A DNA stretch of 64,000 nt from Escherichia coli. Its GTDB lineage: Bacteria > Pseudomonadota > Gammaproteobacteria > Enterobacterales > Enterobacteriaceae. The stretch lies in the NCBI RefSeq assembly GCF_044324785.1, contig NZ_CP172127.1, one strand, 5' to 3'. Positions 60,801-63,800 of the stretch are shown one piece after another (within the stretch, counting starts at the first letter, position 1; each line of letters begins with the position of its first letter). A program made the position numbers.

Positions 60801-63800
60801 GTTTTATCAGCAGGTTTCTGTTTATCGTTCAACTGTGGTATCTGGTCACCGGCCTTCATTTTGTATGCTGTGTCCGTTTTATTCTGCAGCGGCGTTGCCG
60901 GTGATTTACTGAAAATACCCTGCGGTTTACGGTTAATGGTCAGAGTTACCATCAATTTTGTTACCTCGCGCTGTCAATGGAAGTAGTACCTCATCCGATA
61001 TCTGAAAATGTTTTCCGGTGGATGTTACAGCGAATTTCATGTAAGACATGTTGTTGTCGGTATTGTTCAGTACTGTGCGTTGTGAGCGTATTCGTTATCA
61101 GACAGAGGGGCAGGGAACAAATGGCGTGTGAAGCAATCAGCAGGTAATATTAATGGCAGGACCAGCAGGTTCTTTAAACAAACGAACATGCTGTAATTGA
61201 TATTTTGCTTATTGTATTTTCTTTTTAGTTATTAAATTAATTTATTTACGAAAAATTTTCTGCAGATACAGGATGGGAATTCAGTGGATTTGCCCCTATA
61301 TTTCCAGACACCTGTTATCACTTAACCCATTACTGGCCTGCTGCCGCAGATATTCCCGTGGCGAGCGATAACCCAGTGCACTATGCGGATGCCATTCGTT
61401 ATAATGCTCGAACGCCTCTGCAAGGTTCTTTGCTGCCGTTAACCCGTCTGGTTTAGGCATGATACTGATGTAGTCACGCTTTATCGTTTTCACGAAGCTC
61501 TCTGCTATGCCGTTACTCTCCGGACTCCGCACCGCCGTGTTCTTCGGTTCAAGCCCCAACATCCGGGCAAACTGCCGTGTTTCATTAGCCCGGTAGCATG
61601 AACCATTATCCGTCAGCCACTCTACTGGAGACGCCGGAAGCTCGTTGCCGAAGCGGCGTTCCACCGCTCCCAGCATGACGTCCTGTACTGTTTCACTGTT
61701 GAAGCCGCCCGTAGTGACCGCCCAGTGCAGTGCCTCACGGTCACAGCAGTCCAGCGCGAACGTGACTCGCAGTTTTTCTCCGTTATCACAGCGGAACTCG
61801 AACCCGTCAGAGCACCATCGTTGATTGCTTTCTTTCACGGCCACTTTGCCAGTATGTGCCCGTTTCGATGGCGGTACAGCGGTTTTTCGCTCAAGCAACA
61901 GCGCATTCTGGCGCATGATCCGGTAAACACGTTTGGCATTGATCGCAGGCATACCATCAAGTTCGGCCTGTCTGCGAAGCAGCGCCCATACCCGACGATA
62001 ACCATACGTGGGCAGCTCTCCGATAACATGGTGTATACGGAGAAGCACATCCGTATCATCTGAGTGACGGCTGCGGCGACCATCTTTCCAGTCATCGGTT
62101 CGTCTGAGAATTACGTGCAACTGCGCACGCGACACCCGGAGACAACGGCTGACTAAGCTTACTCCCCATCCCCGGGCAATAAGGGCGCGTGCGCTATCCA
62201 CTTTTTTGCCCGTCCATATTCAACGGCTTCTTTGAGGAGTTCATTTTCCATCGTTTTCTTGCCGAGCAGGCGCTGGAGTTCTTTAATCTGCTTCATGGCG
62301 GCAGCAAGTTCAGAGGCAGGAACAACCTGTTCTCCGGCGGCGACAGCAGTAAGACTTCCTTCCTGGTATTGCTTACGCCAGAGAAATAACTGGCTGGCTG
62401 CTACACCATGTTGCCGGGCAACGAGGGAGACCGTCATCCCCGGTTCAAAGCTCTGCTGAACAATTGCGATCTTTTCCTGTGTGGTACGCCGTCTGCGTTT
62501 CTCCGGTCCTAAGACATCAATCATCTGCTCTCCAATGACTAGTCTAAAAACTAGTATTAAGACTATCACTTATTTAAGTGATATTGGTTGTCTGGAGATT
62601 CAGGGGGCCAGTCTATTCGGCAGCACTGTTGCCCTGTATCGAACAGGCCAGAGAGGATGTCCGTACCCTGCGTCATCTGCAGCTTCTGCACCAGAACCGG
62701 TGAATATCACTCACCACGCTTCATTACCCTGACGCCAGCCTGAATACGGCTGGCGTTTTCGTTTATAAACCAAAAGGAAAAATGATGATGTCAGATACCA
62801 CACTCTCCCGCCCGGAGGTGGTCAGCGGGCATACGGACGTTATCTATTCCACCTCAGTCTGCCACATTCTGGCTGTACGAAAGAGTACACTGTTGCCAAT
62901 CGACACAATTATCCGGCATCAAGTGAGCGATATCAGTTAACCGATATAGATGGGGAAGATGCTTTTATCCGGATTGGATCTATCGCGATGGTGCGAGTAC
63001 CACTTGATGCAATGGAGCCTGTCGAGGCAGATGACGAGTAACAGAGCTCGGTATCTCAATCAGGACCTGATTGTCCTGGTTCGATGCCGAAAACCAGTGA
63101 TTTTTCGTGTTGGTATCTGTGTTGGTATAGGATGGTGTTGTTTATTATTAACAATTTTAAATCATGAGGTTAAATCGCATGTTTGAGTCAGGCCTTCGCA
63201 TCAATATCAAAACAATCAATAAATAAGTCCTTTAACCTAGCCACGACCAATCATTGATCAACCACGAAATCCTCTCCGAAACACAGTCCCAATCCCTAAA
63301 CCCTACGCTCAACATCGAAACCCGCTTATCACCATCCCCCTCATCCCCTGAACACCTCCCGCCGGTGCCACGCCACAAACCCCTCCTGGGGATAGCATTC
63401 TTTCCCCATCGGCAAGGTAATCGGCTTACCATCAAAATCCCAGAACAACCTGCCAACGATGCCTCCGCCGTTCACCGCCGGCGAAACCTGGATGCGCATA
63501 TCCTCATCCAGACCAATGGATCCTTTATCAAAAGCCTTATGGTGAATCGCGCAGAGCGCCAGGCCGTTAGGGATTTCGCAGGGGCCGCCGTGCTGCTTCC
63601 ACTTGATATGGGCCGCTTCCAGGGCGACGGAGGTATTATCATGGCGCATATTGAAGCCGCAGATAGCGCACTCATAGTTATAGGCGCGCAGCACCTGCTG
63701 GCGAAAATGCGGGTCGCGCTCTTTGCGGATCTGCAGCAGATCAAACCCCATCTCTTCAGCCAGTTCTTCCTGAATACTCTCCGGAAAGTGCGCCTCGAGG

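Follow-up and report, generated by a model that had tools for sequence, protein, structure and literature searches.

The cryptic islands CP4-44, CP4-57 and CP4-6 of Escherichia coli K-12 follow a recurrent gene order of GTPase, DUF932, antirestriction, RadC, DUF987, CbeA/CbtA and YeeW genes. Deletions beside an insertion sequence have been described for IS150, where insertion of a new copy and recombination with the resident copy give rise to rbs deletions (PMC7881107). For IS2, the terminal inverted repeats are imperfect and 41 and 42 nt long, IRR alone serves as donor end, and joining takes place 1–2 bp outside IRL (PMC3299598). The window analyzed here, a 64,000-nucleotide stretch of the E. 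coli contig NZ_CP172127.1, contains a module with the CP4 gene order (island 1, about 47.9–61 kb), a copy of IS2 and, on the far side of IS2, a fragment of a second module of the same kind.

Island 1 is resident at selC. Its setC-proximal end is marked by an attR-type direct repeat at 47879–47902 (minus strand), a copy of the 3′ end of selC (tRNA-Sec) that aligns with selC of ES1 at 24 of 24 positions. Within ES1, selC and the integrase lie about 41 kb off, on the opposite side from this repeat, and the window is best explained as covering the setC-proximal portion of a composite genomic island, about 41 kb long, that occupies selC. The last gene of island 1 is a full-length DUF4942 gene (48038–48880, minus strand), identified from the ORF list, the PGAP annotation of ES1 and a Pfam PF13708 match to the identical gene of A65EC. 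Next to it, a 141-residue ORF (48965–49390, minus strand; Pfam, PGAP) carries the N-terminus of the yeeW-family domain DUF5983_N in frame with DUF957. The DUF5983_N match covers residues 5–58 with E = 3.7e-28, PGAP describes the ORF as a partial DUF5983 plus DUF957, and its place matches that of yeeW in K-12; the DUF957 coding sequence within it spans about 48965–49162 (minus strand). Towards IS2 lies a ProQ/FinO-family pseudogene (60444–60955, minus strand; ORFs 60444–60746 and 60761–60955), which PGAP annotates as ‘frameshifted’ in ES1, LH50-c, GF60 and HS4; IS2 sits 330 bp upstream of this pseudogene. DUF4942 and attR, the tail of island 1, are on the setC side, 13.5 kb from IS2, and the head side of the island faces IS2.

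The IS2 element, a member of the IS3 family, occupies 61285–62615 (1331 bp, transposase on the minus strand) and differs from K-12 IS2K by 35 mismatches end to end (97.4% identity). IRR is at the left (61285–61325; TGGATTTGCCCC...) and IRL at the right (62574–62615; ...GGGGCCAGTCTA). The frame arrangement expected of IS2, in which insC/orfA and insD/orfB are connected by a programmed −1 frameshift, is present: insD/orfB lies at 61296–62201, insC/orfA has its end at 62524, and the corresponding entries of the ORF list, 62159–62569 and 61296–62201, overlap (all on the minus strand). The ES1 copy, which differs from the window IS2 at 2 of 1331 positions, is annotated by PGAP as a joined CDS, ‘IS3 family transposase, programmed frameshift’. 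The left flanking pentamer, TTCAG (61280–61284), consists of the last native bases before the IRR end, and the right one, TTCGG (62616–62620), is native DUF957 sequence. They are unequal, as an earlier note on this DNA had recorded, and a 5-bp target duplication is therefore absent. Since other IS2 copies have clean 5-bp duplications (CCTTG for K-12 IS2K and ATTCC for a GF60 copy in DUF4198), a simple insertion should show one too; its absence implies that the window IS2 is not a simple insertion and leaves its identity as IS2 unaffected.

When the window was compared with itself by BLASTN, the sequence immediately right of IS2 (62616–62918) aligned with 49052–48750 over 303 gapless positions at 86.1% identity (261/303; E = 6.5e-101). 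A repeat search returned the same inverted pair, with arms 48750–49053 and 62615–62918 and a spacing of 13,561 nt. The regions 48.0–49.1 kb and 62.6–63.0 kb are thus related, and the inverted copy of roughly 85–90% identity that the earlier note had placed right of IS2 is real. Arm A (48750–49052, minus strand) and arm B (62616–62918, plus strand) comprise the 3′ end of DUF957 (76/88 identical positions), an intergenic segment with a terminator-like hairpin (71/84), and the 5′ end of DUF4942 with its first 44 codons (114/131). The label given earlier to the first of these segments, the 3′ end of a yeeW-like gene, is apt for the ORF, which is of the yeeW family through DUF5983_N; it does not suit the repeated part, which is the DUF957 portion. 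We rejected the 303-bp repeats as inverters of the 13.5-kb segment, since they are 86% identical with exact runs of no more than about 30 nt, and the genomes examined included no inverted isomer of that segment. The inverted repeat does not represent a functional element, an invertible switch or the terminus of a mobile element, but the remnant of a second island’s tail.

This remnant, hereafter the relic, comprises the final 589 bp (62616–63204, plus strand) of a second CP4-type island and runs in the opposite orientation to island 1. It is 99.3–100% identical to a CP4-type island end shared by about 1,348 complete E. coli genomes, whose matching tails come after CbtA and an intact DUF5983-DUF957; the intact DUF957 target there reads AACGGA-TTCGG-CAGC, and its native leftward run is ...AACGGATTCGG|CAGC. 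The relic has the homology and gene order of a DUF957-DUF4942 tail module, in fragments only. These are a DUF957 3′ fragment of 28 codons and a stop (62617–62703, plus strand; a pseudogene in PGAP, translated against the island 1 copy), a DUF4942 5′ stub (62788–62940, plus strand) in which ~44 codons homologous to island 1 are fused to unrelated DNA before the frame terminates, and the C-terminal fragment of a helix-turn-helix regulator gene (62913–63041, plus strand; PGAP in ES1, ABU 83972, GF60 and LH50-c). The truncation of DUF4942 at 62918 is an old fusion common to the about 1,348 genomes, including ABU 83972, and not a local event. Labels of the small ORFs and fragments derive from Pfam and from the PGAP annotation of near-identical genomes; against NCBIfam they returned no family.

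The relic ends in an imperfect copy of the 3′ end of leuX (tRNA-Leu CAA) at 63181–63204 (plus strand; gtttgagtcaggccttcg..., 16/18 aligned to K-12 leuX). The island of ABU 83972 that matches the relic is located at leuX, and homology to it ends at this leuX-like repeat. The ABU 83972 repeat itself aligns with the leuX 3′ end at 22 of 23 bases plus a 1-bp gap, and the sequence after it is identical to what natively lies downstream of leuX in K-12. The leuX-like repeat at 63181 is the attR-type repeat of the relic’s parent island, and the relic’s tail, together with this repeat, points away from island 1. No part of the parent island upstream of DUF957 survives beside the relic, and no integrase of its own is left, the sole integrase adjoining selC outside the window. 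The first cargo gene to the right of the relic encodes a phosphorothioated-DNA-binding restriction endonuclease (SBD-HNH; 63341–64000, minus strand; PGAP; Pfam PF26340 DNA-SBD_ScoMcrA and HNH_2) and continues past the window end. In a search for the native leuX-adjacent home of this right-hand cargo, the 25-mer just right of the relic (63212–63236) had 0 matches in a one-genome-per-species scan.

Searches for the junctions and flanks of IS2 covered 5,426 complete E. coli genomes, of which 133 have no interruption at the left site (GGGAATTCAG|GGTGTCATC, or TTCAG|GGTGTC), with the native continuation GGTGTCATCACG... leading into a LacI regulator gene. IS2 is found at this site in only 8 complete genomes, all 8 with the relic on the other side. 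In none of the 5,426 does the left flank (...GGGAATTCAG) run straight into the relic (...GCAGCACTGTTGCCC) without IS2; the two flanks are never contiguous, which bears out the earlier suggestion of an IS2-associated rearrangement in place of a simple insertion. Where IS2 is absent, the flanks run into different DNA, and the DNA that belongs between them is kept in LH50-c. That genome has both the uninterrupted left site (L007 10770–10774) and the IS2::TTCGG-relic junction (L007 45766–47096) in the same orientation, with 34,991 bp of cargo between them. The cargo missing from the window consists of LacI-PTS-transketolase, a YadA-like adhesin, nanE/PTS, ugpB, TonB receptor-DUF4198, DsbD, a TRAP transporter and several IS elements. 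The same cargo is present in HS4 and 14EC020 and represents the common state at selC; each of these two genomes has a same-strand IS2 inside it, at other positions. The long forms of the selC mosaic island (LH50-c, HS4 and 14EC020) share with the window the site (selC-int ... attR-setC), the island-1 module, the ProQ/FinO pseudogene and the TTCAG site, which is uninterrupted in them, whereas the window is without the 35-kb cargo. In contrast to HS4 and 14EC020, the window has the relic and, with it, the PT-restriction/xyloside cargo towards selC. None of the available long forms is a direct ancestor; their island-1 module is only 92–95% identical to that of the window, the last 158 bp before the junction being 100% identical.

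The junction between IRL and TTCGG is constant across strains, and IRR is joined to three different sites: codon 5 of IS66 tnpA (CAGAC) in LH50-c, a point within dctQ (GGTAT), a further 1,576 bp inwards, in GCA_964246605, and, for the window, TTCAG. Two derivatives extend the series. In A65EC, all that is left of IS2 is the terminal 29 bp of IRL, which a GGTT microhomology links to a truncated antirestriction gene, and GF60 has lost IS2 plus 1 bp; 10.7–11.5 kb of flank has been removed in these derivatives, with junction microhomology of 2–4 bp. The IRL::DUF957 junction carries five structural variants, and the right flank is near-identical in all of them (0–2 differences over 1,385 bp). The junctions and their nested series are directly observed, as are the uninterrupted left site, the intact right target and the missing 34,991 bp. 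Within IS2, ES1 and LH50-c differ at 13 sites, all at positions 54–828, and the alleles at 387/388 and 828 and in the patch 870–1139 are spread patchily over strains with the same junction. We rejected this SNP mosaic as evidence of a crossover in a hybrid IS2 because of that patchiness, which indicates gene conversion; the SNP patterns do not separate the routes considered below.

Taken on comparative sequence evidence, the window IS2 is probably the scar of an IS2-anchored deletion inside the composite selC island. Such a deletion explains the missing target duplication, the pseudogene fragments at 62.6–63.0 kb and the strain group’s loss of about 35 kb. IS2 would first have disrupted DUF957 at TTCGG, this gene belonging to the tail of another CP4-type island that lay inverted within the selC island, and the IRL::TTCGG junction would have been fixed from then on. 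Repeated removal of DNA on the IRR side would have brought IRR against different sites in different strains, and in the window lineage it would now abut TTCAG, with about 35 kb of cargo gone. The most likely route, as we infer from the junctions, is that a second IS2 inserted at TTCAG in the same orientation and that homologous recombination between the two IS2 copies followed, which would leave a single IS2 with one flank from each copy; the other route would be a transposase-driven intramolecular event from the IRR end. IS2 is multi-copy in E. coli, with a median of several copies per genome. Among the 5,426 complete genomes, neither the original DUF957-5′::IRR junction nor the reciprocal IRL::TTCAG-GGTGTC junction was found, and since the reciprocal junction was not found we read the rearrangement as a deletion and not an inversion. 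Retention of the cargo together with an IS2 at TTCAG flanked by its TTCAG duplication occurs in 0 of the 5,426, and a chimeric-junction search of the same set detected no two directly repeated IS2 copies each with its own duplication. The scar, with its pseudogene fragments, has no function of its own.

A simple IS2 insertion in which one later point mutation altered the 5-bp duplication (TTCAG versus TTCGG) would fit the 5-bp duplications that IS2 normally makes and the agreement of the two pentamers at four of five positions, a match that we treated as coincidence (chance about 1.6%). We give this account virtually no credence: the flanks come from unrelated sequences, the LacI side in 133 genomes and the DUF957 side in about 1,348, no genome joins them without IS2, and a simple insertion can be regarded as already refuted by the native continuations of both flanks. 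Equally negligible is the chance of an assembly artefact, a repeat-induced mis-join at IS2, which the earlier note had named as a possible refutation. IS2 is indeed multi-copy and such repeats are the classic cause of mis-joins, but the identical junctions recur in 8 complete genomes that were sequenced independently and differ in host, country and laboratory, and in four further NCBI assemblies (L014–L017), and the derivative junctions of A65EC and GF60 make sense only if the structure is real. A tail-to-tail fusion of two CP4-type islands, also proposed earlier, or an inversion between inverted IS2 copies that placed the second tail beside island 1, would account for the inversion of the relic relative to island 1; moreover, the orientation of the relic in the selC island is opposite to that of tandem accretion at one tRNA gene, for which an old inversion could account. 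We nevertheless consider both very unlikely. The geometry is not tail to tail, because the tail of island 1, next to the selC-type attR, is at 47.9–49.4 kb with the head of the island towards IS2 and the relic’s tail points the other way; LH50-c has 35 kb of unrelated cargo between the two; the two junctions named above as absent from the 5,426 genomes count against a flip as well; and the event specific to the window removes DNA and flips none.

Within the preferred reading of an IS2-anchored deletion, the second IS2 copy may be dispensable. A resident IS2 alone could have produced nested deletions anchored at IRL by aberrant or ‘sloppy’ strand transfer from IRR, possibly guided by IR-like motifs, an account that we regard as possible but on balance unlikely. 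It would fit the one fixed IRL junction and the three varying IRR junctions, IRR being the only donor end of IS2 (PMC3299598), and sloppy strand transfer has been proposed for IS629 deletions (bioRxiv 10.1101/2023.06.07.543989). At 387/388 and 828, the IS2 at the TTCAG junction in EC0585 has alleles in common with the anchor IS2 of LH50-c or that of L011. The GF60 deletion stops exactly 1 bp beyond IRL, where the IS2 transposase normally joins the IRR 3′-OH, and CAGA(C/T)A motifs resembling the IS2 IR lie near all three junction sites. The motif statistics, however, are weak and post hoc (shuffle p about 0.02 and 0.08 at the two tested sites, the third read by eye), and copy-out-paste-in elements alone do not delete donor-flanking DNA. 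A new insertion followed by RecA recombination gives the same outcome and is documented for IS150, and second IS2 copies are common and are seen elsewhere in this island in other strains. That transposase may drive IRL-anchored rearrangement at the IRL::DUF957 junction, making it a natural hot spot of this process and not of passive recombination, seems doubtful to us; if true, it would provide field examples of IR-targeted or ‘sloppy’ IS2 strand transfer shaping a genomic island.

The locus is a case of ordinary IS-driven island decay, a phenomenon already known, and introduces no new system or principle. Its consequence is mainly one of annotation, in that the 303-bp repeat and the small ORFs are to be read as an island remnant beside a deletion scar, and the comparison identifies about 35 kb of selC-island cargo that has been kept in related strains and includes genes for PTS/transketolase, a YadA-like adhesin, a TonB receptor and a TRAP transporter. 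From LH50-c through GCA_964246605, the window type and A65EC to GF60, the variants form a natural example of an island eroded step by step by IS elements. Like the K-12 islands CP4-44, CP4-57 and CP4-6, with which island 1 has its gene order in common, the relic belongs to this kind of module, as its terminal portion (DUF957, DUF4942), and closes with a tRNA-derived repeat; unlike them, only 589 bp of this second module is left, in inverted orientation and interior to the selC island, and its repeat is of the leuX type and not the selC type. The rbs deletions of the E. coli long-term evolution experiment (PMC7881107) likewise involve an IS3-family element, one fixed and one variable IS boundary, a surviving IS without a matching target duplication and loss of the genes in between. 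The window events differ from them in being natural, in a genomic island, much larger (35 kb) and deduced from comparative genomics only. IS629/IEE excision in E. coli O157 (Kusumoto et al. 2011, as described in bioRxiv 10.1101/2023.06.07.543989) resembles the A65EC and GF60 derivatives, which likewise lose all or most of the IS together with flanking DNA; in the window, by contrast, the junction is precise at the IS2 terminus and the IS is retained.

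The window is E. coli chromosome, and its 59000-64000 segment matches strains ES1 and ST38 at approximately 100% identity. In ES1, tRNA-Sec (selC) and its integrase lie approximately 26 kb past the right end of the window, and the island extends from selC/integrase to setC. The island's attR-type end is marked by 24 bp that exactly duplicate the 3' end of selC (47879-47902, minus strand). This repeat adjoins a minus-strand CP4-44/CP4-57-type module (island 1), ordered DUF4942, DUF957, partial DUF5983, CbtA, YeeU, hypothetical, DUF987, JAB/RadC-family, antirestriction, DUF932, and GTPase, followed by Gp2/YagK-like genes, an AlpA-like HTH gene, and a frameshifted ProQ/FinO gene. 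This order places the island 1 tail toward setC and its head side toward the IS2, so the tail-to-tail fusion proposed in the earlier note is wrong. Outside the attR-type repeat, toward setC, a rhuM gene fragment at approximately 47670-47800 implies that pieces of an older element remain in the interval from the current island boundary to setC. On the island's chromosomal flank, immediately left of yicS-nlpA-yicL-setC, the ES1 annotation (L001 1-4417; window approximately 39000-43400) places type III secretion translocator/chaperone genes of the IpaD/SipD, YopB/SseC, and SycD/LcrH families.

The IS2 (61285-62615, 1331 bp) carries both overlapping transposase ORFs on the minus strand, with IRR (TGGATTTGCCCC...) as its left end and IRL (...GGGGCCAGTCTA) as its right end, and is 97.4% identical to K-12 IS2K. 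It is flanked by TTCAG (61280-61284) and TTCGG (62616-62620). The unequal pentamers are diagnostic because other IS2 copies carry clean 5-bp duplications, namely K-12 IS2K (CCTTG) and a separate IS2 in DUF4198 of strain GF60 (ATTCC), 465 bp from the deletion described below; the four-of-five agreement between TTCAG and TTCGG is best read as chance. No genome among the 5,426 complete E. coli genomes has the two flanks contiguous without IS2, and the earlier suggestion of an IS2-associated rearrangement rather than a simple insertion was right. The base at IS2 position 1203 (window 62487) is absent from all 11 other junction copies compared, and that at position 256 (window 61540) is common only to the window and GCA_964246605 among them; the source strain is therefore near ES1, ST38, and I2 yet not identical to them.

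The inverted partial copy of the island-end module beside the IS2 is real: in a self-comparison of the window by BLASTN, 62616-62918 aligns to 49052-48750 (261/303 identities, gapless, E = 6.5e-101), and a separate repeat search recovered the same pair. The repeated stretch comprises the last 28 codons of DUF957, an intergenic hairpin, and the first approximately 44 codons of DUF4942. The ORF at 48965-49390 (minus strand), previously called yeeW-like, does have a DUF5983_N (yeeW-family) N-terminus, but only its in-frame DUF957 portion belongs to the repeat. This yeeW-family gene lacks its C-terminal part, and its N-terminus runs in frame into DUF957 as one 141-aa ORF, which PGAP divides into a pseudogene and DUF957. 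Independent IS2-associated truncations of DUF957 occur in the CP4-44 island: in ESDR8 (L024 1820-3180), IS2 and then a duplicated 25-bp IRL end adjoin a DUF957 3' fragment, and in K-12 (L009 4136-4260) DUF957 has an internal deletion between GCACTG repeats near the same spot. A further 13 genomes carry an IS2 no more than a few hundred bp from DUF957, and the tail of the island seems to be a zone where IS2 often lands and decay is common.

Right of the IS2, 62616-63204 is a relic of a second island, and approximately 1,348 complete E. coli genomes carry a match that is 99.3-100% identical. In ABU 83972, the matching stretch closes an intact module of YeeU, CbtA, DUF5983, and full DUF957, after which come the DUF4942 5' stub and HTH C-terminal fragment, fused just as in the window. 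The truncation that ends similarity to island 1 at 62918 is therefore an old and widespread fusion rather than a local one. The intact DUF957 target reads ...AACGGA-TTCGG-CAGCAC, so the TTCGG right of the IS2 is native DUF957. The ABU 83972 stretch ends in gtttgagtccggccttcgcacca, in which 22 of 23 aligned bases match the leuX 3' end with a 1-bp gap, and beyond it the DNA is identical to that natively downstream of leuX in K-12, followed by a degraded intB-like integrase. The relic's parent was thus a leuX-type island, with the repeat as its attR, and its tail now sits in inverted orientation inside the selC island. The window retains gtttgagtcaggccttcgca (63181-63200) and departs from ABU 83972 after 63204, within the leuX-like repeat; this break (63204/63205) may be the trace of an ancient site-specific or illegitimate event. 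When one genome per species was scanned, the 25-mer adjoining the relic had no match. Cargo to the right encodes a phosphorothioate-dependent restriction endonuclease, an HNH protein, GH43, MFS, xylA, and a porin. The first of it (63341-64000 onward; L001 24342-26029) is a ScoMcrA-like pair, a phosphorothioated-DNA-binding SBD-HNH endonuclease (922 blocks in the assembly collection's index) and a ScoMcrA_N/HNH protein, followed by the GH43/MFS/xylA/LamB-porin sugar cluster.

The left site survives uninterrupted in 133 complete genomes; in LH50-c it reads GGGAATTCAG|GGTGTCATCACG... and runs into a LacI regulator gene. IS2 at TTCAG occurs in only 8 of the 5,426 genomes, with the relic on its other side in all eight, and the one-piece IRL::relic junction in nine. 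On one chromosome and in one orientation, LH50-c carries island 1, the uninterrupted TTCAG, 34,991 bp of cargo, an IS2 oriented as in the window (15 base differences from it), and the TTCGG-relic junction. The cargo holds LacI-PTS-transketolase, YadA-like adhesin, nanE/PTS, ugpB, TonB receptor-DUF4198, DsbD, and TRAP transporter genes and several IS elements; HS4 and 14EC020 have the same cargo at selC, each with a same-strand IS2 at other positions inside it. Precisely the stretch from TTCAG to the IS2 IRR end is missing from the window lineage, and the event is a deletion. The long-form comparators are cousins of this lineage, not ancestors: island 1 is 92-95% identical between them and the window, and the 158 bp nearest the junction are identical. 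At 61121-61127, upstream of the ProQ/FinO pseudogene, the window, ES1, ST38, and I2 lack approximately 154-159 bp of non-coding sequence relative to LH50-c, GF60, H8, and most other genomes; a 124-bp form occurs in EC0585 and HS4. Identity to LH50-c rises from approximately 94.5% to 100% across this site, which suggests a recombination boundary.

Across variants, the IRL::TTCGG junction is constant, with 0-2 differences in 1,385 bp of right flank, and the IRR side joins three different sites: codon 5 of an IS66-family tnpA (CAGAC) in LH50-c, the inside of dctQ (GGTAT), 1,576 bp further in, in GCA_964246605, and TTCAG upstream of the ProQ/FinO pseudogene in the window type. Because the LH50-c IS2 also lacks a target duplication, the body of the relic's island was lost in an earlier round. 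Two further deletions remove all or most of the anchoring IS2. In A65EC, starting from the window-type structure, a 10.7-kb deletion (equivalent to window approximately 51876-62586; join at L006 6960-7001) begins inside an antirestriction gene and stops 29 bp short of the IRL end, with GGTT microhomology, leaving an orphan 29-bp IS2 end. In GF60 the loss is 11,468 bp (L003 5975-6001 versus LH50-c, L007 35629/47097); it takes in the entire IS2 and 1 bp beyond it, with 2-bp TC microhomology. An IS2-IR-like motif containing CAGA(C/T)A lies near each IRR-side junction (61244-61260; L007 44176-44192; L007 45754-45765), with matches of 14/17 to IRL and 12/14 to IRR and CAGAC at the third junction. 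Shuffle p is approximately 0.02 at the first site and 0.08 at the second; the motifs possibly reflect IR-targeted insertion, a reading with weak, post hoc support.

A transposase-driven intramolecular event by the resident IS2 could also give such joins, although we consider it the less likely route. IRR is the sole donor end of IS2, with joining 1-2 bp outside IRL (PMC3299598), and the GF60 right endpoint, 1 bp outside IRL, is the usual position at which the transposase joins the IRR 3'-OH; 'sloppy' strand transfer is a proposed origin of IS629 deletions (bioRxiv 10.1101/2023.06.07.543989). IS2 SNPs do not help in choosing the route because alleles are patchy among strains with the same junction, and junction searches of the 5,426 complete genomes found neither a two-copy intermediate nor an inversion partner junction. 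In the route we favor, a second IS2 would insert in direct orientation and then recombine with the resident copy. The precise join at the IS2 terminus with loss of adjacent DNA fits this documented IS3-family two-copy route, by which IS150 removed the rbs genes through second-copy insertion and recombination (PMC7881107). The feature is an IS2 deletion scar beside the relic, itself made of pseudogene fragments, within a mosaic island undergoing decay, and events of this kind are well known.
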